Origin: Candidatus Lustribacter sp.
GTDB taxonomy: Bacteria > Vulcanimicrobiota > Vulcanimicrobiia > Vulcanimicrobiales > Vulcanimicrobiaceae
NCBI GenBank assembly: GCA_965277805.1
Contig: OZ255842.1
Coordinates: forward strand, 1,216,001-1,280,000
Length of the DNA stretch: 64,000 nt
Reading direction: 5' to 3'
Made by a program: the position numbers and the translations under genes. The notes under the pieces were generated by a model. That model saw nothing but the letters and a program-made list of their open reading frames with translations, made no database searches and was not told where the DNA came from. The number at the start of each line of letters is the position of its first letter. Position 1 is the first letter of the stretch. Shown piece after piece: positions 35,963 to 45,616 of this stretch.

Positions 35963-36271
35963 ATGGCGAAGCAGAAAATTCGTATCCGGCTCAAAGCCTA
36001 CGATCACGCGATCCTCGATCAGTCCGCCGAACGCATCGTCGACACGGCCAAGCGTACCGGCGCGTTCGTGAGCGGCCCCGTGCCGCTGCCGACCGAGATC
36101 AACCGGGTTTGCGTGCTGCGTTCGCCGCACGTCGACAAGAAGAGCCGCGAGCACTTCGAGATGCGCACGCACAAGCGCTTGATCGACATCCTCCAAGCGT
36201 CCCCGAAAACGATGGACGCCCTCATGCACCTCGACCTGCCGGCCGGCGTGGATATCGAACTAAAAGCGTAG
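35963..36271 (+). CDS. rpsJ: 30S ribosomal protein S10
   Basis: [24 protein letters not shown]. Confidence 0.98.
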
Positions 36272-36292
36272 TCCGAAAAGGGCACAATGAAG

Positions 36293-36318
36293 AAACCGCT
36301 CGCTTGGGCGGTTTTTTT
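36293..36318 (+). terminator. Rho-independent terminator after rpsJ
   Basis: AAACCGCTC-GCTT-GGGCGGTTT followed by further Ts. Confidence 0.85.
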
Positions 36319-36395
36319 ATGTGCGCCAGCGCGCGATTTGGAGAGGTCGGTGAGAGCGTGATATGGAGGGCTCGATTGGGGGTAAACCTCCGGGC

Positions 36396-36839
36396 ATGAA
36401 TATAAAGCGCACCCTTGCTTCGGTCGCGCTGGCCGGCACGGTCGCCTGGACCGCGGTCCCGGCTCGTCCCGCGTTGGCCGACGGCGCGGCATCCACGCGC
36501 AATATCATCGGCGGCGCAGCGGTCATCGGCGGAACCTTGCTGATCATCAACCACAACAAGCAAGTTCACGCGAAAGAAGACCAGATGGCTTCGGCTCAGG
36601 CCCAGTCCGAAGAAAACGCGAACAACGCGCAAGCGGCATATCAGGCGGAACGCAGGGCGTACCGCGCGCAAGTCGCGATCAACAATGAGTACAAGCACGA
36701 GGTCGCGCTGCAGCATAAGCTGATCGTCCAAATGCGCGGCCAGCTCGCCTCAGCGCACCGCTCGGGCTACGTTAGCCAAGCCCCGGCTCAGCAGCCGGCT
36801 CGCGTCGCGACGACGTCGTACGGCTGGGGAACGCTCTAA
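36396..36839 (+). CDS. Secreted hypothetical protein (glycine-zipper-like segment plus coiled coil)
   Basis: Signal peptide ending [14 protein letters not shown]; Ala/Gln-rich helix. Confidence 0.7.
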
Positions 36840-36842
36840 GCC

Positions 36843-37235
36843 ATGCGCTCGAGCCTCATCTGCGCGAGCGGTGTGTTCGCGCTTGGCCTCGCCGCGTGCG
36901 GCGGCGGCGCGGGCGACGGGACGTCACCTCAGAAGGTCACGAACGACGTCACGGCCGCCGTGTACAACGACGACCTCAACGCCATGCAATCGCACTTCGA
37001 CGACGCGCTGAAGAAGCAAGTCACGATCGACGGCGTCGCGACGCTCTCGCAAAAACTGCACGCCTTCGGCGCATATAATGGCGTCACCCAAACAGCTGCC
37101 GATTCGACCGGCGGACGCTACGATTATAACGCCGGCTTCGATAAAGCCACGATGGCCGTCCACGTTCGGGTTGATTCGGACGGACGAATCGCTGCCTACC
37201 GGATCGACGTCCCGCAGAACGTCGCATCACGATAA
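36843..37235 (+). CDS. Putative lipoprotein
   Basis: Lipobox LAAC-GG; 3 bp after the upstream stop. Confidence 0.75.
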   Translation: MRSSLICASGVFALGLAACGGGAGDGTSPQKVTNDVTAAVYNDDLNAMQSHFDDALKKQVTIDGVATLSQKLHAFGAYNGVTQTAADSTGGRYDYNAGFDKATMAVHVRVDSDGRIAAYRIDVPQNVASR

Positions 37236-37252
37236 ACGGAGTAACGACGTTC

Positions 37253-37513
37253 ATGCTTTCGAATCAAAAGATCGCGGCGATCTACAACCTTCGCACGGCG
37301 GTCGAGGCTAAGGTCAAAGCCGAACAGCGCCTGAAGAACGTACCCTCAGCCGATGCTCGCATCGCGCTGCTGAACGCGACGCTCGAGGTCGAGGCGAAAA
37401 CGCAGACCGCGATCGAGGCCTGTCACGCATGCGGCCGCAAGCACGAACCCGAGGAAATGCCCTGCGACAACGTCATCGAAGTCGACTTCGGCGTCGACCA
37501 ATCGATCGGTTAG
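37253..37513 (+). CDS. Small hypothetical protein with CxxC-x3-H...C
   Basis: GGAG SD; helical body; CHACGRKH...PCDNVIEVDF. Confidence 0.7.
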   Translation: MLSNQKIAAIYNLRTAVEAKVKAEQRLKNVPSADARIALLNATLEVEAKTQTAIEACHACGRKHEPEEMPCDNVIEVDFGVDQSIG

Positions 37514-37929
37514 CCGACGCCGGCGCCCTGCTGCCGGGCGACCGGCAGGCGTTTGGTGAGGCGCACGCACGACCCGCGCTCGTCGAAGTCCACCTGATCC
37601 ATCAGGTGGCGCATTAAGTAGATGCCGAACCCGCGGGGGGCGTCGTGCGCCGGCTTCGGCGCAGACGGATTGCAGAGAAAGCCGCGGCCCTCGTCTTGCA
37701 CTTCGATGACGATGCTGTCCCGCTCGACGAAGACGCGAACTTCGAAACCGCTGCCGGCCTGGTGTCCGTGTTCGGCGGCGTTGGCCAAGGCCTCGCCGAC
37801 GGCCGTTTCGATATCGGCCAAATCGCCGTCCGGGTACCCGAACGAGGCAATATGCGCAATTAACGAGCGTCGCGCAAATGCCGCCGCCCGCCGAGTATTC
37901 GGAAACCGCGCCCGGAAATCACCTGTCAT
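37510..37929 (-). CDS. RsbW/SpoIIAB-like anti-sigma-factor ATPase domain protein
   Basis: AVGEALANAAEHG, VQDEGRGF, RGFGIYLMRHLMD. Confidence 0.88.
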   Translation of the reverse strand: MTGDFRARFPNTRRAAAFARRSLIAHIASFGYPDGDLADIETAVGEALANAAEHGHQAGSGFEVRVFVERDSIVIEVQDEGRGFLCNPSAPKPAHDAPRGFGIYLMRHLMDQVDFDERGSCVRLTKRLPVARQQGAGVG

Positions 37930-38021
37930 AGTTGCGTTAAGACGCGTATACCACGAAACGGCGAAGTCCAACCGCTGCCTCGCTTGAAAGAACCGGCCGG
38001 CTGAATCCGAACCTCCGGGAC

Positions 38022-38447
38022 ATGCCCATTCCGCTCGACGTTTCGTTCGAACGCACGTTTTCTGGTACTCCGAAGCGTATTTACCAGCTCCTGACCGAGA
38101 TGGGGACGTCGGCCGACGCCATCTGGCCATTCGCCTCGCAGCCGTTCATGCGCAGCGCCGGCCCGCTCGTGCCGGGTCAAACCGAGGAGTGGCACCTTGG
38201 GCTGCACGCGGTGCTGGAGTCGGTCGAGCCGGAGAAGAGCATCATCTGGCGGATCGACAACGACGGGGTCGACGGCACGCACGGCTTCACGATCGTCCAA
38301 GACGGCAAGAAGAGCACCGTAATCCACCGGGTATGCGCCGAGCTGTCCGACCTCGACGGCCGGCTGCTCTGGAAGCGGGTGGAAGATGGTCATCAGCGCG
38401 CCATCGAGGGATTGTTCGACAAGCTGGGGCGCGTCCTCAAGCGTTAG
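38022..38447 (+). CDS. SRPBCC/START-like hypothetical protein
   Basis: Size and pattern (VEPEKSIIWR...HGFTI, C-terminal helix). Confidence 0.6.
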   Translation: MPIPLDVSFERTFSGTPKRIYQLLTEMGTSADAIWPFASQPFMRSAGPLVPGQTEEWHLGLHAVLESVEPEKSIIWRIDNDGVDGTHGFTIVQDGKKSTVIHRVCAELSDLDGRLLWKRVEDGHQRAIEGLFDKLGRVLKR

Positions 38448-38459
38448 CGGATCCGCTCG

Positions 38460-38858
38460 CTATTTCGGCTTCATCGTGGTGGAGTTGAGGATCGGGATCT
38501 GCGTGTACGCTTTCCCCGCCGGAATCGACGAGAGGTAGGCGTAGATGTTAGCGAGGTCGCTCGTCGGCAGAATTTTCTCGGAGAACGACGGCATGTTTCC
38601 GCTCGGCTTGCGGACGTAGGCGTTCACTGCCGCCCACGGCAGCGGATGCGGCGCTAGCCGGGCGCCGGTGCCGTAGTTGCCCTGACCGACGGTGCCGTGG
38701 CACTCGTAGCAGCCGTAGCGCAAGAACGCGGCTTTGCCGCGCGCCGCATCGCCGGGCGGCGGCGCCGGCGCGGCCGCCGTGGTTTGGGCGAGCGCGCCAT
38801 GGACGGAGAAGAGCGCCGCGGCCATCACGGCGAGTGCGAGCGTTATCAAGCGTTGCAT
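38460..38858 (-). CDS. Secreted monoheme cytochrome c (copy 2)
   Basis: Sec-type signal ending ALA; CYECH; distal Met in MPSF. Confidence 0.92.
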   Translation of the reverse strand: MQRLITLALAVMAAALFSVHGALAQTTAAAPAPPPGDAARGKAAFLRYGCYECHGTVGQGNYGTGARLAPHPLPWAAVNAYVRKPSGNMPSFSEKILPTSDLANIYAYLSSIPAGKAYTQIPILNSTTMKPK

Positions 38859-38869
38859 CAGCGTAATCC

Positions 38870-40831
38870 TTACCGTGGCTGCGAGACGACGTCGATGACG
38901 GCCGGCAAGCCGCTTTTCACGACCTTCAGCGCGCGCGCGATCGCAGGCGCGAGCTGATCGGGCTGCGTGATCGGACCTTCACCGTGCACGCCCATCGACT
39001 CCGCAAACTTCGCGAAGTCGATGTTCGGGCTCGTGATCAGGGTGCCGGTGCGGGCCATTTCGGGCCCGCGTTCGCGGCGGCTCGCCATGCGCTGAAGGTG
39101 CATCGTTTCCTGATGCCAGGCGCGGTTGTTGTGCACGACCGTCAGCATCGGAACTTTGTGATGCGACGCGGTCCACAGCGTGCCGGGTGCGACCATGAAG
39201 TCGCCGTCGCCGTTGAAGTTCACCGAGTAGCGGCCCTGATCGCGCGCGGCGATCGCCGCGCCGAGCGCCGACGGTAAACCCTCGCCGACGCCGTAGGCGC
39301 CACCGTCGCTGCAGATGTGGTGATACTTGTCGAGGTCCCACAGACGATTCGGATACTGCCCTTGATAGAACGTTCCGGACACGAGCGAGAAATCGTCGTT
39401 CTTGATCTGCGCGTAGACTTCGGCCACCCAGCGGCCGACCGTGATCGGCGATGCATCCCAGCTCGTCGACGCGAGCGCGAGATCCGCCTGACGGCGCTTC
39501 GAGAACGAATCGACGAAGGCTTGAGCGCGGGTGGGATTCTGCGCGCGCCGTTCGCTCGTCATCGCGCGGTTCACCGCGTCGATCAGATATGGCAGCGAGG
39601 CTTCGCTGTCGCCCGCGATCGGCATCGTCGGCTCGTAGAAGCGCTGCTGGTCTTGGTAGTTGCCGGAACCTTGCAGATACAGCGCGTTGATCGAGATGAC
39701 CGTCGTCGTCGGTTTGATGCGCATGGTCGAGGCGCGGACCGGGAAGTCGGGAACGTCGCCGACGAGTCCGAAAAGATCGGTCAGTTCGAGTCCGAGGATG
39801 ACGTCGGCTTTGCCGAGCAGCGTGCGATCGAACGAACCGTTGAGGTGGTGGTTCGTCGGGAAGTTCATGCGATTGCCGTAGTCGATGACCGGGATCTGCA
39901 ACGCTTCCGCGAGTTGCACGAGGTGCGCCATGCCGTCGGCCGTACGCGCGCAGCGGTCGGCGACGATGATCGGGAACTGCGCGTTGACCAGCGCCTTCGC
40001 GACGTCGGCGAGGGCTGCCGGATCGGCCACCGGCGGCCGCACCGGAGCGTATTTCGGCAGCGGCAATTGCTTCTGATCGTTCGGCATCTCGGCCAAATCG
40101 GCGTCGACGATCACCATCGTTGGTCCCATCAACGGAGTCGTTGCGAGCGACGTCGCCTTCATGGTCTCTTCGCCGAACGATTGCAGCGACATCGGTGACG
40201 TATCGTACTTGATGAAGCCGCGCACGATCGCGGCCACGTCGGTGGCCGTGTGGTACCATTCGACGCCGGGCCGGCGGGTTGCACCGTCGGCGATGTTGCC
40301 GACGAAGATCACCATCGGCACGCGCGCCGCGTACGCGTTGTAGATATTCATCGAGGCGTGCTGCAGGCCGACGGTGTTGTGCACGATGATCGCCATCGGC
40401 TTGCCGGCCATCTGCGCGTAGCCCATCGCGATGCCCGACGAAATCTCTTCGTGCACGCACGAGAGCAATTCGGGTTTCGCGTTACCGCCGTAATTGGTGA
40501 TCGACTCCTGGAGTCCGCGGAACGTCGATCCCGGCATGCACGTAATGTAGTCGAAGCCGACGTGCTTGATGCAATCGACCATGTAGTCCGAGCCGGCGTT
40601 GTGTACGTGCCAGCGGTCGACGTCGGGCGCCGGCGTACCGGTTTCTTGGGCCATCAGACGCGGCCCGGGGAGGGGCGCGCTTGCGAGCGGCACGACGGGC
40701 GCGTTGGCTGTGGTCGCGCCGGCAGCGGCTGCCGCCGCCGGTGCGACGCCCGCAGCGGCAGCGCCAGCGCCGCCCGCGGCAATTCCGGCGAGGAATCCGC
40801 GGCGGTCGACTCCGGAATCTTTCTTTGCCAT
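38870..40831 (-). CDS. ThDP-dependent enzyme (AHAS/POX/BFD superfamily) with twin-arginine signal (copy 2)
   Basis: DRRGFL; PGSTF...HEE catalytic Glu; GDGD...NN ThDP/Mg motif. Confidence 0.9.
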   Translation of the reverse strand: MAKKDSGVDRRGFLAGIAAGGAGAAAAGVAPAAAAAAGATTANAPVVPLASAPLPGPRLMAQETGTPAPDVDRWHVHNAGSDYMVDCIKHVGFDYITCMPGSTFRGLQESITNYGGNAKPELLSCVHEEISSGIAMGYAQMAGKPMAIIVHNTVGLQHASMNIYNAYAARVPMVIFVGNIADGATRRPGVEWYHTATDVAAIVRGFIKYDTSPMSLQSFGEETMKATSLATTPLMGPTMVIVDADLAEMPNDQKQLPLPKYAPVRPPVADPAALADVAKALVNAQFPIIVADRCARTADGMAHLVQLAEALQIPVIDYGNRMNFPTNHHLNGSFDRTLLGKADVILGLELTDLFGLVGDVPDFPVRASTMRIKPTTTVISINALYLQGSGNYQDQQRFYEPTMPIAGDSEASLPYLIDAVNRAMTSERRAQNPTRAQAFVDSFSKRRQADLALASTSWDASPITVGRWVAEVYAQIKNDDFSLVSGTFYQGQYPNRLWDLDKYHHICSDGGAYGVGEGLPSALGAAIAARDQGRYSVNFNGDGDFMVAPGTLWTASHHKVPMLTVVHNNRAWHQETMHLQRMASRRERGPEMARTGTLITSPNIDFAKFAESMGVHGEGPITQPDQLAPAIARALKVVKSGLPAVIDVVSQPR

Positions 40832-40842
40832 GAGGGGCTACC

Positions 40843-41253
40843 TTATTTGGGCGTCATCGTGGAATTGAGTAACGGAAGTTGCGAGCCGGGTTTGCCGGCG
40901 GGGATCGACGAGAGATAGGCATAGATGTCGGCCAGCGTCGCATCCGGCAAGATCTTGACGGAGAACGACGGCATGTCGCCGCGCGGCCGCCGCACGTACG
41001 AACTCACGAGCGACCACGGCGGCGCCTTCGCCGCGATGCGCGCACCGGTGCCGAAGTTCCCTTGGCCCACGGTGCCGTGGCACTCGTAGCAGCCGAAGCT
41101 CATGAAGGCGGCTTTGCCGCGCGCGACGTCACCGGGTGGTGCGGTTGCCGCCGCCGCGGGTGCTGCGGCCGGCGTGCCTTGAGCCGAAGCACCGTGCGCG
41201 CTGACGAGCAGCGCCGCGACCAGCGCGAGCGTGAACGAAGCAATACGATTCAT
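40843..41253 (-). CDS. Secreted monoheme cytochrome c (copy 1)
   Basis: Signal ending ASA; CYECH; MPSF; GAGGG SD upstream. Confidence 0.92.
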   Translation of the reverse strand: MNRIASFTLALVAALLVSAHGASAQGTPAAAPAAAATAPPGDVARGKAAFMSFGCYECHGTVGQGNFGTGARIAAKAPPWSLVSSYVRRPRGDMPSFSVKILPDATLADIYAYLSSIPAGKPGSQLPLLNSTMTPK

Positions 41254-41264
41254 CTGCATTCCCT

Positions 41265-43238
41265 CTAGCGCGGCTGGCTGACGACGTCGACGAGTGCGGG
41301 CATTCCGTTTTTCACGACCTTGAGCGCGCGTGCGAGCGCCGGACCGAGCTGATCCGGATTCGAGATCGGTCCTTCGCCGTACACGCCGAACGATTGCGCC
41401 AACTTCGCGAAGTCGATGTTCGGGTTGTTGATCAGCGTGCCGATCGTTGCAGTTTGCGGTTGACGTTCGCGGCGGTTGGCCATGCGCTGAAGATGCATTG
41501 CTTCTTGATGCCACGCACGGTTGTTGTGCACGACGGTGAGCAGCGGAATCTTGTGATGCGCCGCCGTCCAGAGCGAACCCGGCTGCACCATGAAGTCGCC
41601 GTCACCGTTGACGTTGATCGCGTACCGGCCCTGATCGCGCGCGGCGAGCGCTGCACCGACGGCGGCCGGCAATTGGTAGCCGACGCCCGACGCGCCGGAG
41701 CCGCCGTTATAGTGATAGGGCTGATCGAGGTCCCACAGCCGTTGCGGCCACGAACCCATTTGACCGGTCGGCCCCACCATCGAGAACGCATCGCCCTTGA
41801 CGAGATTGTGGATTTCGGCGTACATGCGCGGGAGCGAGATCGGCGAAGCATCCCAACCGAAGCCGGCCGTTGCGATCGCTTCTTGCCGGTGTTTGCTCCA
41901 TGAGTCGGCGAAACGCGCGGCGCGCGCGGTGTTTTGCGCTTTGCGTTCGCTCGTGACCGCGCGGCCGATGGCGTCGATGAGATACGGCAGCGAGGCCTCG
42001 GCGTCGCCGGCGATCGGCATCGTCGGGTTGTAGTAGCGCTGCTGATCTTGGTAGTTACCCTGACCCTGCAAGTACATCGAGTTGATGTGAATCGTCGTCG
42101 TGTTCGGTTTGATCTTCATCACGGATTGGCGAACCGGAAAATCCGGCACGTCGCCGACGACGCTGAAGAAGTCGCCCACTTCGAGTGCGAGAATCACGTC
42201 GGCTTGCGCGATCGTCGCACGGTCGAAGGCCGCGTAGAGATGATGGTTGGTCGGGAAGTTCATCCGGTTGCCGATGTCGACGACCGGGATCTGCAGCGAT
42301 TCGGCGAGCTGGACGAGCAGCGCCATGCCGGCCGGCGTGCGCGCCACGCGATCGGCGACGATGACCGGAGTCTGCGCGCCGACCAGGGCCTTCGCAACAT
42401 CCGCGAGGGCCGCCGGATCGGCCACCGGCGGACGCACCGGAACGAACTTCGGCAGCGGCAATTGTTTGGCGTCATTCGGCATTTCGGCCAAGTCGGCGTC
42501 GACCATGACCAGTGCCGGTTCTTGCACCGGCGTCATTGCGAGCGACGTTGCCTTCATGACTTCTTCGCCGAACGATTGCAGCGACATCGGCGACGCATCG
42601 TATTTCACGTACCCGCGCACGATCTGCGCGACGTCGGTCGCGGTGTGGTACCACTCGACGCCCGGCCGGCGCGTCGAGCCGTCGGCGATGTTGCCGACGA
42701 GGATCAGCATCGGCACGCGATCGGCGTACGCGTTGTAGATGCCCATCGAGGCATGCTGCAAGCCGACGGTGTTGTGCACGATGATCGCCATCGGTTTGTG
42801 CGCCATCTTCGCGTAACCATGGGCCATCGCGGCGGAGATCTCTTCGTGCGTGCACGAGAGCAGCTCGGGCTTCGAGTTGCCGCCGTAATTCGTGATCGAC
42901 TCTTGCAGACCGCGGAACGTCGATCCGGGCATACAGGTGATGTAGTCGAAGCCGACGTGCTTGAGGCAGTCGACCATGTAGTCGGAGCCGGCGTTGTGAA
43001 CGTGCCAGCGATCGATCTCGACGGCCGGCGTGCCGGTCTCTTGCGCGACGAGACGCGGGCCGGGCAAACTTGCGCTGGCGTTCGCGATGTTCGGCACGCT
43101 CGTCGTACTCTGCGGTGCGTCCGCGGCCGCGGCAGCGGCGGAAGCTGGTGCTACACCGGCGGCTGCCGCTCCGGCGCCTCCCGCTGCAATACCCGCAAGG
43201 AAAGCGCGCCGGTCAACACCGGCCTTTTTCTTAGCCAC
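41265..43238 (-). CDS. ThDP-dependent enzyme with twin-arginine signal (copy 1)
   Basis: DRRAFL; HEE; GDGD...NN; paralog of 38870-40831. Confidence 0.9.
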   Translation of the reverse strand: MAKKKAGVDRRAFLAGIAAGGAGAAAAGVAPASAAAAAADAPQSTTSVPNIANASASLPGPRLVAQETGTPAVEIDRWHVHNAGSDYMVDCLKHVGFDYITCMPGSTFRGLQESITNYGGNSKPELLSCTHEEISAAMAHGYAKMAHKPMAIIVHNTVGLQHASMGIYNAYADRVPMLILVGNIADGSTRRPGVEWYHTATDVAQIVRGYVKYDASPMSLQSFGEEVMKATSLAMTPVQEPALVMVDADLAEMPNDAKQLPLPKFVPVRPPVADPAALADVAKALVGAQTPVIVADRVARTPAGMALLVQLAESLQIPVVDIGNRMNFPTNHHLYAAFDRATIAQADVILALEVGDFFSVVGDVPDFPVRQSVMKIKPNTTTIHINSMYLQGQGNYQDQQRYYNPTMPIAGDAEASLPYLIDAIGRAVTSERKAQNTARAARFADSWSKHRQEAIATAGFGWDASPISLPRMYAEIHNLVKGDAFSMVGPTGQMGSWPQRLWDLDQPYHYNGGSGASGVGYQLPAAVGAALAARDQGRYAINVNGDGDFMVQPGSLWTAAHHKIPLLTVVHNNRAWHQEAMHLQRMANRRERQPQTATIGTLINNPNIDFAKLAQSFGVYGEGPISNPDQLGPALARALKVVKNGMPALVDVVSQPR

Positions 43239-43316
43239 TAAGCACCTCGTGAAGTTACGGAGACGTCTTTTCGGGACTCATTTCCGCGGAATCACGCGAT
43301 GCCTGCAAACGGGTTA

Positions 43317-44708
43317 TTACTTACTCGGTCCGACCCAGACGGTTTGGATGTTCATGAACTCGCGGATGCCGAGATAGGAGAGCTCGCGCCCGTAGCCGCT
43401 GTGCTTCACGCCGCCGAACGGCAGCCGCGGATCCGACGCCGTCATGCCGTTGATGAACACCGCGCCCGATTCGATGCGCCGTGCAAGTTGTTTGCCGCGT
43501 TCGACGTCGCCGGTCCATAACGCGCCGCCCAAGCCGAAGGTCGAGTCATTGGCTAAAACGACAGCGTGTTCGGCGTCACGCGCGCGGATGACGGCGGCGA
43601 CCGGACCGAACGTCTCTTCCCGGAAGACCGGCATCGTGTCGTCGACGTCGACCAGCACCGTCGGTTCGAAGAACGCCCCCGGACGGCCAGGTGCGGAGCC
43701 GCCGAGCACGACACGCGCGCCCTTTTTCACCGAGCCCTCGATCTGCTTCACCAAGTCGTCGCGCAGATCGGTCCTGGCGAGCGGACCCATCGCGGTTTTC
43801 CGGTCCTCGGGGTCGCCGGTCGTGTAGGCTTTCGATTCTTCGACGAACGCGGCGACGAAGCGGTCGTAGACCGCGTCTTCCACGATGAAGCGCTTGGCGC
43901 AAATGCAACTCTGGCCCGCGTTCTGAAAACGCGCTTTGGCCGCGGTCTTCGCGGCCGCCGGAATGTCGGCGTCGGCCAGGACGATGAAGGCATCGGAGCC
44001 GCCCAGTTCGAGCACGTGCTTCTTGAGCGCGCGGCCGCTTTCACTTGCGACCGAGACGCCCGCCGGTTCGCTGCCGGTGATCGTCACCGCGGCGATGCGG
44101 TCGTCGGCGATCAGGCGCTTGACCTCGGCCCCGGGCACGATCACGGTGGCGAAGATGCCGGGCGGGAAGCCCGACTCGCGGAACGTCTCCTCGATGTCGA
44201 GCGCGCAGCGGGTCACGTTGCTGGCGTGCTTGAGGATGCCGCCGTTACCCGCCATCAGGGCGGGGGCTGCGAAACGGAAGACTTGCCAGTAGGGGAAGTT
44301 CCAGGGCATGACCGCCAGCACGACCCCCAGCGGCTGGTAGGCGATATAGCTGTCCGTTGCGGTCGAAGCGATGTGCTCGTCGGCCAGAAACTTCTCGGCG
44401 TTGTCGGCGTAGAATTCGCACGCCCAGGCGCACTTCTCGACCTCGGCCTCGGCGTCGCCGATCGGCTTGCCCATCTCGCGGGTGGCGTTGAGGGCAAAGC
44501 GAGCTTTGTTCTCCCGCAGGTAGCCGGCGGCGCGCTTCATTAAAGCGCCGCGCTCGGCGAACGAGCGCCGCGACCACTCGCGCTGAGCGGCCACCGCCCC
44601 ATCGAGACGGGCCCCGATCTCAGCTTCGGTATGGAGGGCGAACGATTCTAGCTTGGCCCCGGTCGCGGGGTTGATGGAGTCGACGGTCTTCGGCTGCGCT
44701 GCGATCAT
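43317..44708 (-). CDS. NAD(P)-dependent aldehyde dehydrogenase (succinate-semialdehyde dehydrogenase-like)
   Basis: VMPWNFP, LELGGSD, NAGQSCIC, EETFGP, PFGGVKHSGYGRE. Confidence 0.94.
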   Translation of the reverse strand: MIAAQPKTVDSINPATGAKLESFALHTEAEIGARLDGAVAAQREWSRRSFAERGALMKRAAGYLRENKARFALNATREMGKPIGDAEAEVEKCAWACEFYADNAEKFLADEHIASTATDSYIAYQPLGVVLAVMPWNFPYWQVFRFAAPALMAGNGGILKHASNVTRCALDIEETFRESGFPPGIFATVIVPGAEVKRLIADDRIAAVTITGSEPAGVSVASESGRALKKHVLELGGSDAFIVLADADIPAAAKTAAKARFQNAGQSCICAKRFIVEDAVYDRFVAAFVEESKAYTTGDPEDRKTAMGPLARTDLRDDLVKQIEGSVKKGARVVLGGSAPGRPGAFFEPTVLVDVDDTMPVFREETFGPVAAVIRARDAEHAVVLANDSTFGLGGALWTGDVERGKQLARRIESGAVFINGMTASDPRLPFGGVKHSGYGRELSYLGIREFMNIQTVWVGPSK

Positions 44709-44722
44709 AACGCCATTCTGCT

Positions 44723-44800
44723 ATGTCATCCCGAGCTTGTCGAGGGACCGCCGCAATTGCCGTCGCTGGGTGGCTGCCCCTCGACAAGCTCGGGTGACAT
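44723..44800. repeat. REP-like element, inverted pair with spacer
   Basis: ATGTCATCCCGAGCTTGTCGAGGG ... CCCTCGACAAGCTCGGGTGACAT. Confidence 0.88.
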
Positions 44801-44837
44801 GGAACGCCCGGTACCGTGGAACGATACGTCTCCAGGT

Positions 44838-44866
44838 TTGACTTTCTGGCCTCGTGTTGGTATCAT
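44838..44866 (+). promoter_or_regulatory. Promoter of the rplC-led operon
   Basis: TTGACT, 17 bp spacer, TATCAT with extended TG. Confidence 0.8.
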
Positions 44867-44877
44867 CTGGCGGTTGT

Positions 44878-44948
44878 GGTCCACGCCGGCCGCGGTACTT
44901 TGCCGTGGCCGACGGAAAGCGTAGTCGATACGCCAGGACCCGTGGACT
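44878..44948 (+). promoter_or_regulatory. Candidate structured ribosomal leader (three-way junction)
   Basis: Outer stem GTCCACG/CGTGGAC enclosing two hairpins. Confidence 0.55.
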
Positions 44949-44968
44949 TCCTAGAGGCGATAACGACG

Positions 44969-45616
44969 ATGAAGAACATCATCGGCCGCAAGGTCGGGAT
45001 GACGAGTGTGTTCACAGCCGATGGGCGCTACGTACCGGTGACGGTAATCGAAGCGGGCCCGTGTACGGTCGTGCAGCGCAAGACGAAAGATACCGATGGC
45101 TACGAAGCCGTCGCGCTCGCCTTCGGCGACGTTAAGAAGTCGCGGGTTACGCGCGCGCTGGCCGGACATTATAAGAAGGCCGGCGTCGAACCGAAGCGCG
45201 ACATCCGCGAGTTTCGCACCGAACTCGAAGGGCTCGACGTCGGCACCGCCGTCACCGTCGAATCGTTCATCGAGGGCGATCGCGTCGACGTGCAAGCCAC
45301 GTCGAAGGGCCACGGCTTCGCCGGCGGCATCAAGCGCCACAACTTCAGCGGCGGCGGCGCGAGCCACGGCTCGATGATCCACCGTCAGCCTGGTTCGAAC
45401 GGCGACACCAACGCCGGTCACACGCCCAAGGGCAGCCGCCGTCCGGGTCACTACGGCGTCGACACCATCACCCATCAGAATCTCGAGATCGTGCGCGCCG
45501 ACGTGGAGCGCAATTTGCTGCTCGTGCGCGGGCCCGTTCCCGGTCCGAAGAACGGGCTCGTCATCGTGACTCACTCGGTCAAGGCCGGCAAGTACCCCGT
45601 TAAGGAAAGCGCCTGA
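44969..45616 (+). CDS. rplC: 50S ribosomal protein L3
   Basis: IGRKVGMT, VPVTVIEAGPC, SKGHGFAG, GPVPG. Confidence 0.97.
   Translation: MKNIIGRKVGMTSVFTADGRYVPVTVIEAGPCTVVQRKTKDTDGYEAVALAFGDVKKSRVTRALAGHYKKAGVEPKRDIREFRTELEGLDVGTAVTVESFIEGDRVDVQATSKGHGFAGGIKRHNFSGGGASHGSMIHRQPGSNGDTNAGHTPKGSRRPGHYGVDTITHQNLEIVRADVERNLLLVRGPVPGPKNGLVIVTHSVKAGKYPVKESA

Follow-up and report, generated by a model that had tools for sequence, protein, structure and literature searches.

To our knowledge, every characterised thiamine-diphosphate (ThDP) enzyme of the POX/AHAS/BFD superfamily works in the cytoplasm, and the ThDP enzymes that oxidise their substrates use FAD or, in another family, iron-sulfur clusters. 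Pyruvate oxidase and the pyruvate:quinone oxidoreductase PoxB, which belong to the same superfamily, use ThDP to decarboxylate a 2-oxo acid oxidatively and deliver the electrons to an external acceptor. In the 2-oxoacid:ferredoxin oxidoreductases (PFOR and OFOR), a metal centre close to the ThDP-bound intermediate oxidises it in a one-electron reaction without a flavin. Outside the cytoplasm, the p-cresol methylhydroxylase PchCF, flavocytochrome c sulfide dehydrogenase and the sulfite dehydrogenase SorAB each pair a cofactor-loaded catalytic subunit with a dedicated small class I cytochrome c from an adjacent gene. The locus described here lies in a stretch of 64,000 nucleotides from Candidatus Lustribacter sp. 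(contig OZ255842.1), which we call the window, and encodes two ThDP enzymes, each followed by a small cytochrome c. On balance we favour the view, which is built on sequence comparison and a predicted complex, that each pair is a two-subunit extracytoplasmic enzyme made of a ThDP protein and a cytochrome c and oxidising small carbonyl substrates.

Two tandem pairs of enzyme and cytochrome genes

The four genes follow each other on the minus strand in the order ThDP-A (41265..43238; 657 aa, GTG start), cyt c-A (40843..41253; 136 aa), ThDP-B (38870..40831; 653 aa) and cyt c-B (38460..38858; 132 aa). At all three junctions between them the stop codon is followed by 11 nt and an ATG, and an AGG/GGA purine stretch directly precedes the start codon. 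A second in-frame ATG of cyt c-A is located 6 nt upstream of the one that yields the 136-residue protein. The two ThDP proteins are 74% identical (484/657) and the two cytochromes are 70% identical across 93 residues. An aldehyde dehydrogenase gene (43317..44708, minus strand; Pfam Aldedh, E 3.3e-137) lies 78 nt upstream of ThDP-A on the shared strand; its product is succinate-semialdehyde-dehydrogenase-like, has no signal peptide and reaches 579 bits with its best NCBIfam model, NF006915, below the cut-off of 730. Directly upstream of this gene there is a sigma-70-like promoter match (44715..44743, minus strand), which is a consensus match only, two such sites being found against 1.1 expected. 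The aldehyde dehydrogenase and the ThDP/cytochrome modules are possibly co-transcribed.

ThDP-A and ThDP-B are members of the ThDP-dependent decarboxylase-type superfamily (POX/AHAS/BFD). Both contain the TPP_enzyme_N, M and C domains (PF02776, PF00205 and PF02775) above the curated cut-offs, and Foldseek matches their fold to solved members of the superfamily. An alignment of 54 homologues shows no variation at H131-E132-E133, D546-G547 and N572-N573, the GDG...NN spacing read from the sequence is 24, and S106, E132 and H155 align with the active-site residues S26, E47 and H70 of benzoylformate decarboxylase. The AlphaFold2 model of ThDP-A has a pLDDT of 82.9, with residues 1-60 below 50. The NCBIfam models for benzoylformate decarboxylase (NF005485; 150 and 129 bits, cut-off 493) and pyruvate oxidase (111 bits, cut-off 742) stay under their cut-offs, and NF006203 (PRK08327) gives 254 and 235 bits for ThDP-A and ThDP-B against a cut-off of 456.

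The two small proteins are monohaem class I c-type cytochromes. In both of them PF13442 and PF00034 (Cytochrome_CBB3/Cytochrom_C) are above cut-off and the N-terminus is a short hydrophobic Sec-type signal ending with A-x-A-Q, while CYECH (C55, C58 and H59; codons 41077-41091 in cyt c-A and 38697-38711 in cyt c-B) and M94-P95, which holds the distal Met, are invariant in 26 homologues. In profile comparison the cytochrome matches PchC, which is the cytochrome subunit of the periplasmic flavocytochrome p-cresol methylhydroxylase (1dii_C; E 5.6e-8, TM on target 0.73). Genes for maturation and respiration are present in the genome in the form of ResB and two COX1 (haem-copper oxidases). The initial annotation had described tandem ThDP/cytochrome modules on one strand with 11 bp gaps, catalytic HEE and GDG...NN motifs in both enzymes, and Sec-type signals, CYECH and a distal Met in both cytochromes; the list of open reading frames, the reading of the junctions and the invariance of these residues among homologues bear this description out.

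The twin-arginine leader and the linked cytochrome across phyla

Both ThDP proteins begin with a Tat-like N-terminus that reads MAKK(K/D)(A/S)GVDRR(A/G)FLAGIAAGGAGAAAAGVAP..., where DRR(A/G)FLAG is followed by an Ala/Gly-rich run. In ThDP-A this leader occupies approximately the first 40 codons (43119..43238, minus strand; arginine codons 43206-43211) and is disordered in the model; the arginine codons of ThDP-B are at 40799-40804. The RR leader is seen in 39 of the 41 exported-type gene copies, which come from four phyla, with loci from Vulcanimicrobiota, Burkholderiales, several alphaproteobacterial families and Acidobacteriota, and RRx[FLIVM] is found in 106 of the 120 best homologues. Among the 85 full-length proteins in the best 150 cluster representatives, 14 bear the leader, and these include all the top scorers. 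When the enzyme tree is built from core columns only, with the leader columns left out, the leader-bearing enzymes form one clade with a support of 100/97, and one change accounts for the leader over the 49 rows. A loose RR-leader pattern matches 199 of the 5015 crude ORFs of this genome, but the leader and the adjoining cytochrome recur together across four phyla, which indicates more than chance. Additionally, TatC (168 bits) and two matches to TatA/B/E exceed their cut-offs and represent the Tat machinery in the genome. The leader is a putative signal, through which the ThDP proteins would be exported by Tat.

One would argue that the leader is no working export signal, that the ThDP protein stays in the cytoplasm or at the inner membrane face, and that its linkage to the cytochrome reflects co-regulation only. 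RG, RS or WR does replace RR in 7 of the 113 homologues with a complete N-terminus, as well as in this genome's module D, and Tat targeting should be weaker in these proteins, which counts against our explanation. However, RRxFL, the Ala/Gly-rich uncharged stretch and the A-x-A end are kept across the four phyla, the leader was not found in any full-length sister-clade member examined, and the complex prediction described below would pair the enzyme with a protein that matures only outside the membrane. Therefore, we consider the lack of export very improbable.

A homologous cytochrome c gene adjoins the enzyme gene in all 35 evaluable genome loci, 32 times on the same strand, and in 47 of the 51 metagenome loci, with one more at a distance of 1 kb; in the remaining three metagenome loci no CxxCH ORF was found within the DNA examined, which counts against our explanation. 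In the cytochrome tree the A-type and B-type clades are sisters, as they are in the enzyme tree, and this mirroring implies that enzyme and cytochrome were duplicated and passed on together. The A and B pairs are paralogous modules, and their substrates probably differ. Two more such modules, C and D, are present in this genome, which makes four in all. The initial annotation had proposed a twin-arginine leader and a dedicated cytochrome c, and had made both depend on conservation among homologues and in their neighbourhoods: the arginines turn out to be kept and to mark one clade, and the cytochrome remains adjacent to the enzyme and diverges together with it.

The rest of the neighbourhood varies, and among the neighbour genes only the cytochrome is shared across phyla. 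In 7 of 26 loci a gene of the FAA-hydrolase family is at most three genes away, another such gene lies beside module C, a Rieske dioxygenase adjoins module D, and dienelactone hydrolase, UbiD, FAD monooxygenase and class II aldolase are recurring neighbours. As these are often genes of ring cleavage or diketo-acid conversion, the enzyme could be an oxidoreductase of another kind, similar to cyclohexane-1,2-dione hydrolase with the cytochrome in place of NAD+, which oxidatively cleaves a C-C bond of an alpha-diketone, an alpha-hydroxyketone or a ring-cleavage product. Such a function is unlikely, since the neighbours in question are cytoplasmic enzymes, they differ from locus to locus, and the active-site residues that are kept are of the 2-oxo acid decarboxylase type.

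The predicted complex and the possible path of electrons

The predicted complex of ThDP-A and cyt c-A scored 0.83, compared to 0.00 for the best of three controls. In the calibration, 116 of 157 solved complexes attain the mark that it passed, as do 2 of 215 mismatched pairs; our run differed from this calibration by its own alignments and the added haem. At least 89% of the contacts are common to the runs, and the pLDDT of the partner is at least 84. In the predicted interface the cytochrome rests with its CxxCH edge (residues 52-58) and its distal Met region (residues 92-98) on residues 577-597 of the enzyme, that is, on the helix directly after the ThDP-binding N572/N573, which would bring the haem edge onto the cofactor-binding helix. 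Six positions, computed before the complex was folded, are conserved in the exported clade alone; two of them, H577 and M581, fall within this interface. ThDP enzymes work as dimers or tetramers whose active sites lie where subunits meet, while a single enzyme chain was used for this prediction, and a possible clash with the oligomer interface counts against the modelled docking.

The initial annotation had also hinted at an FAD site. In the FAD-dependent subgroup (pyruvate oxidase, AHAS and glyoxylate carboligase) a glycine-rich loop starts the middle domain, with an FAD-contact motif after it. At these sites the window proteins read ...PVIVADRVAR... and ...ALEVGDFF..., and, judged by eye, they resemble FAD-free members; on inspection the glycine-rich loop is not seen in the middle domain, which does not bear out the hint. 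Consequently, electron transfer may be flavin-free. It counts against our explanation that the superfamily would then give no precedent for the way in which such an enzyme passes electrons on.

The closest solved relatives are FAD-free decarboxylases, and residues corresponding to S26, E47 and H70 are retained, which would also suit an exported non-oxidative decarboxylase or lyase of the benzoylformate decarboxylase kind. The periplasmic aldehyde would then be taken up and oxidised by a cytoplasmic aldehyde dehydrogenase, while the cytochrome would have a structural or stabilising role or would scavenge electrons of side reactions. The adjoining aldehyde dehydrogenase, whose cluster is also upstream in loci L001-L005 and L009, fits such an aldehyde-releasing enzyme and counts against an oxidative one. 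However, it was not found at loci from phyla other than Vulcanimicrobiota, whereas the cytochrome is present in every phylum, and the conserved haem ligands together with the predicted position of the haem edge are hard to square with a scaffold. Moreover, no cytochrome is found beside the leaderless sister copies (two paralogues in this genome and L038/L039; three copies with flanks examined). We thus regard a non-oxidative function as unlikely.

The most far-reaching reading, with a probability of roughly 0.4, is a flavin-free ThDP:cytochrome c oxidoreductase in which the haem beside the ThDP site receives its electrons straight from the intermediate bound to ThDP. Soil and peat bacteria would use it to oxidise 2-oxo acids or related carbonyls outside the cytoplasm, and the family would have given rise to several modules per genome, each specific for its substrate. 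In the explanation that we favour on balance, the ThDP protein would fold and acquire ThDP/Mg2+ in the cytoplasm, and its RRxFL leader would then direct it, already folded, to export by Tat. Sec would export the small cytochrome in the unfolded state; the cytochrome would receive its haem outside the membrane from the ResB-type system II and would bind to the ThDP subunit. The substrate, a small carbonyl compound and most likely a 2-oxo acid, would form the ThDP-bound carbanion/enamine, which the docked haem would oxidise in two one-electron steps and with no release of aldehyde. The products would be a carboxylic acid and CO2, and the reduced cytochrome would presumably pass the electrons to a haem-copper oxidase and so to oxygen. 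As no FAD is apparently involved, electrons would move from ThDP straight to the haem. An extracytoplasmic ThDP oxidoreductase with its own cytochrome had been put forward by the initial annotation, and it gains in silico support from the leader, the Tat and cytochrome c maturation machinery, the linkage, the co-divergence and the complex prediction that the annotation had suggested.

Comparison with known systems

No characterised orthologue of the ThDP/cytochrome pair was found in the literature, in NCBIfam (best model below cut-off) or among solved structures, in agreement with what had been stated at the outset, and hundreds of homologues are all automatically annotated as 'acetolactate synthase'. 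If our reading is true, a Tat-exported ThDP enzyme with its own cytochrome c would extend the range of cofactors among known periplasmic dehydrogenases by one class, would be a new instance of electrons passing directly from ThDP to haem, and would give a name to a widespread, unannotated route of organic-acid oxidation in acidic soils and peat. The module has cultured carriers, for example Paraburkholderia solisilvae (L035), therefore the idea is directly testable.

The nearest sequence relatives are the members of the leaderless and likewise uncharacterised sister family (NF006203, PRK08327, named 'thiamine pyrophosphate-requiring protein'), which are 30-40% identical and have 42 conserved positions in common with the exported clade, including H131, E132, H198, R208, K212 and H332, but have neither the leader nor an adjacent cytochrome. 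Compared with solved structures, ThDP-A and ThDP-B show 18-23% identity at best. The best profile match among these (E 3e-36) is to benzoylformate decarboxylase (MdlC, 1bfd) and the M. smegmatis ThDP enzyme 4q9d, which have the same three-domain fold (Foldseek TM 0.63-0.66 on query). The window proteins retain the catalytic Glu and counterparts of the Ser and His, but not of H281, and by inspection the FAD-type loop is seen neither in them nor in the two solved relatives. The latter, however, are only 18-22% identical to them and, unlike what we propose for the window enzymes, are cytoplasmic, leaderless and non-oxidative and have no cytochrome partner. PoxB differs from the proposed window system by its FAD relay, its place on the cytoplasmic side and its reduction of O2 or quinone. 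PFOR and OFOR belong to another protein family, contain iron-sulfur clusters instead of haem, are cytoplasmic and reduce ferredoxin. An organic acid is also used in 'extracytoplasmic respiration' with a cytochrome c acceptor by an enzyme that is described as Zn-dependent; it is unrelated and not ThDP-based. PchCF, flavocytochrome c sulfide dehydrogenase and SorAB follow the same logic in the arrangement of the subunits and genes, but they rely on FAD or a molybdenum cofactor in unrelated catalytic subunits, whereas in the window the place of the flavo- or molybdoprotein subunit that marks flavocytochrome c-type dehydrogenases is taken by a ThDP enzyme.

The block and its genomic setting

The order ThDP enzyme, cytochrome c, ThDP enzyme, cytochrome c on one strand with 11-nt gaps, as read in the initial annotation, proved accurate according to the ORF list, the junction reads and the Pfam domains. 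Five consecutive ORFs lie on the minus strand of the window: an aldehyde dehydrogenase taken from the ORF list (43317-44708), the first thiamine diphosphate enzyme ThDP-A (41265-43238; 657 aa, GTG start), its small cytochrome cyt c-A (40843-41253; 136 aa), the paralogous ThDP-B (38870-40831; 653 aa) and cyt c-B (38460-38858; 132 aa). All three junctions within the ThDP/cytochrome block consist of a stop codon, 11 nt and ATG, with a purine-rich AGG/GGA stretch before each start, and the aldehyde dehydrogenase gene stops 78 nt upstream of ThDP-A. Both enzymes carry all three ThDP-enzyme domains and both cytochromes carry cytochrome c domains above the curated Pfam cut-offs; the enzymes are 74% identical to each other and the cytochromes 70% identical over 93 residues. 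Promoter and terminator matches were no more numerous than in shuffled sequences.

The genome consists of one contig of 5.53 Mb. L001, the nearest record in public databases (99% identity), is a metagenome-assembled genome (MAG) of Candidatus Eremiobacterota, now Vulcanimicrobiota, and further close loci carry the label Candidatus Lustribacter. The block with its aldehyde dehydrogenase sits within the S10 ribosomal-protein cluster (35963-45616), on the opposite strand, between rpsJ (35963-36271) and rplC (44816-45616), which are thereby separated by 8.5 kb. This gap also contains four small plus-strand ORFs and a minus-strand RsbW-like HATPase_c_2 gene (37510-38130). The same split layout is found in the related MAGs L002, L005, L006 and L008. 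The module does not belong to the core of the phylum: 120 further sampled genomes gave no match at E <= 1e-100. A conserved third "helper" gene was considered and rejected: its only candidate, a 141-aa SRPBCC-like ORF (38022-38447, strand opposite to the block; Polyketide_cyc2, E 0.019), is confined to Vulcanimicrobiota.

A putatively exported clade of ThDP enzymes

The twin-arginine motif that had been noticed in both ThDP enzymes is conserved in their homologues. We read the N-termini in frame in 40 loci from one-genome-per-species contigs and found 41 exported-type gene copies in 37 of them, 39 of which show RRxF(L/I) followed by an uncharged Ala/Gly-rich stretch; in the two copies lacking a visible motif (L001 copy B and L030), a frameshift affects the leader region. 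Three leaderless relatives (L011b, L038 and L039) occur among the same loci. In a large protein collection, 106 of the best 120 homologues have RRx[FLIVM], seven are N-terminally truncated and seven carry WR, RG or RS in place of RR. From a library of 1.8 billion proteins we took the best 150 cluster representatives, 85 of them of at least 550 aa; the leader pattern flagged 15 of these 85, one flag (P0234) falling within the core domain, and the resulting 14 leader-bearing proteins include all of the top-scoring full-length ones, while the remaining full-length representatives (30-40% identity) begin straight at the core domain.

The enzyme tree was built from 79 proteins using core columns only, with the leader omitted and the frameshifted or truncated sequences L001, L023, L027, L030, L036 and L040 excluded. 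All 49 leader-labelled rows, one of which (module D, see below) actually reads RG, fall on one side of a single branch (ultrafast bootstrap 100, SH-aLRT 97) and 28 leaderless rows on the other, a topology that points to a single origin of the exported clade. The genome encodes TatC, two TatA-type proteins and ResB, which belongs to the system II pathway of cytochrome c maturation; it also has two genes for subunit I of haem-copper oxidases. ResB, TatC and one TatA-type gene stand side by side (C1:4664813-4667184; L041, L052, L055), so that export and cytochrome-maturation genes are clustered.

Some further observations concern the leaders themselves. Those of the WR, RG or RS type keep the hydrophobic stretch (P0005, P0083, P0084, P0096, P0100, P0104, P0105 and module D). 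An A-x-E-T stretch was discarded as a conserved feature of the mature N-terminal extension, the strict pattern occurring in just 22 of 41 rows. A loose RR-leader pattern matches 199 of 5015 crude ORFs of the genome; many of these leaders end in A-x-A, as do those of periplasmic solute-binding proteins, and three such ORFs adjoining modules C and D match NMT1/THI5-like domains in Pfam. The organism may have an unusually large number of Tat-like leaders.

The cytochrome as companion and predicted partner

The initial annotation had proposed an extracytoplasmic ThDP-dependent oxidoreductase with its own cytochrome c as acceptor, and the adjacency of the two genes holds well beyond the window. Linkage could be evaluated in 35 of the 40 genome loci (L003 and L036 stop short, L040 is fragmentary, and L038 and L039 are leaderless relatives), and a homologous cytochrome c gene lies directly 3' of the enzyme gene in every one of the 35, on the same strand in 32 and convergent in three Terriglobia loci. 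Independent metagenome contigs, used for adjacency only since the RR motif was part of their search pattern, have a cytochrome at most 700 nt downstream in 47 of 51 evaluable loci (45 on the same strand); one further locus has it 1 kb away, and the available DNA of the other three contains no CxxCH ORF. The leaderless paralogues of the genome have no cytochrome alongside. Clustering the neighbours of the 40 loci revealed no other neighbour common to loci across phyla.

In the cytochrome tree the A-type and B-type proteins form sister clades, as do ThDP-A and ThDP-B in the enzyme tree, and proteobacterial and acidobacterial groups likewise recur in both. The cytochrome tree thus mirrors the enzyme tree, from which we conclude that tandem duplication copied both genes of the pair together, before the four Lustribacter-like genomes carrying both copies diverged, and that the enzyme-cytochrome pair also travels between lineages as a unit. 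A seemingly natural fusion of the two proteins in L029 (a single 781-aa ORF) was rejected in favour of a frameshifted assembly: the end of the enzyme reading frame continues, out of frame, into the cytochrome gene, whose own signal peptide remains. Several MAG records have frameshifts within these genes (L001 copy B, L027, L029 and L030), which are probably assembly errors in long-read MAGs.

We folded mature ThDP-A (residues 60-656, one chain) with mature cyt c-A (26-135) and haem. The prediction scored 0.83, against 0.00 for the best of three controls; in calibration, 116 of 157 solved complexes attained this mark, as did 2 of 215 mismatched pairs, our fold differing from the calibration in its custom alignments and accompanying haem. 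Three runs agreed in at least 89% of contacts, with a partner pLDDT of at least 84. To our knowledge there is no solved complex of a ThDP enzyme with a cytochrome, hence it seems unlikely that the pass reflects memorisation by the predictor. The model supports binding of cyt c-A to ThDP-A without demonstrating it. In the predicted interface, the helix of enzyme residues 577-597, which follows immediately on N572-N573 in the cofactor-binding motif, is contacted by two segments of the cytochrome: 52-58, at C55-x-x-C58-H59, and 92-98, at the distal M94. The conserved C-terminal tail of the cytochrome (120-135) makes contacts with the enzyme as well. Six positions conserved in the exported clade and different in its leaderless sisters (E113, D202, E353, H577, E579, M581) had been listed before the complex was folded; two of them, H577 and M581, are among the 54 residues of the predicted interface, which by a rough binomial estimate would happen by chance about once in ten times and is a lead rather than a test.

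Proposed reaction and relation to known ThDP enzymes

We propose that the enzyme would be loaded with its cofactor in the cytoplasm and exported folded by Tat, that the cytochrome would be exported by Sec and then receive its haem, and that it would dock beside the ThDP site; these steps have computational support. By analogy with family chemistry, a 2-oxo acid would then form a ThDP-bound carbanion/enamine, the haem would carry out two one-electron oxidations, hydrolysis would release the acid, and a haem-copper oxidase would re-oxidise the cytochrome. In the main rival explanation the protein would be a plain exported decarboxylase supplying the aldehyde dehydrogenase, and Vulcanimicrobiota loci do have in addition a cytoplasmic succinate-semialdehyde-dehydrogenase-like gene upstream. 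However, this leaves unexplained why it is the cytochrome that accompanies the enzyme everywhere, rather than the dehydrogenase.

As to the substrate of the proposed oxidoreductase, FAA-hydrolase family genes neighbour 7 of 26 loci and module C, and other recurrent neighbours are class II aldolases, dienelactone hydrolases, FAD monooxygenases, UbiD decarboxylases, and carboxylate-type transporters and binding proteins; porins stand directly upstream in three Burkholderiaceae loci. Together these neighbours give a hint of substrates among the small organic acids that arise when aromatics or sugar acids are broken down. The genome holds four modules, the tandem A and B and two elsewhere. Module C (C1:2456964-2458913; L044/L137) combines an RR leader with a dihaem cytochrome c and neighbours malate-synthase-like and fumarylacetoacetase genes. 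In module D (C1:1692483-1694414; L045/L138) the leader reads RG, a monohaem cytochrome c lies downstream, and the neighbours are the alpha and beta subunits of a Rieske ring-hydroxylating dioxygenase and a luciferase-like monooxygenase. In one Herbaspirillum MAG a leaderless paralogue (L011:9633-11537), flanked by two SBP_bac_8 solute-binding protein genes, follows two genes after the exported pair and may handle the same compound in the cytoplasm.

Full-text literature searches for an exported ThDP enzyme or a pairing of ThDP enzyme and cytochrome c brought up no paper, and a protein atlas search gave only generic "thiamine pyrophosphate-binding protein" clusters. The best NCBIfam model, PRK08327 "thiamine pyrophosphate-requiring protein", scored below its cut-off. 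FAD-binding members of the superfamily carry a glycine-rich loop in the middle domain, which the enzymes of the block, as judged by eye, appear to lack. The paralogue L057 of the same genome was tried as FAD reference and set aside, being HACL/acetolactate-synthase-like and below all cut-offs. The AlphaFold2 model of ThDP-A (pLDDT 82.9, pTM 0.82) is confident outside residues 1-60, the predicted leader and linker, where low confidence is to be expected. Foldseek matched it to ThDP enzymes only (TM 0.62-0.69 on the query, 18-23% identity): catabolic acetolactate synthase, benzoylformate decarboxylases (BFD), glyoxylate carboligase and 2-hydroxyacyl-CoA lyases. The best solved profile match is the BFD-like protein 4q9d (E 3e-36). 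Of the BFD residues S26, E47, H70 and H281, the first three have their equivalents in S106, E132 and H155 of ThDP-A, and H281 is not conserved.
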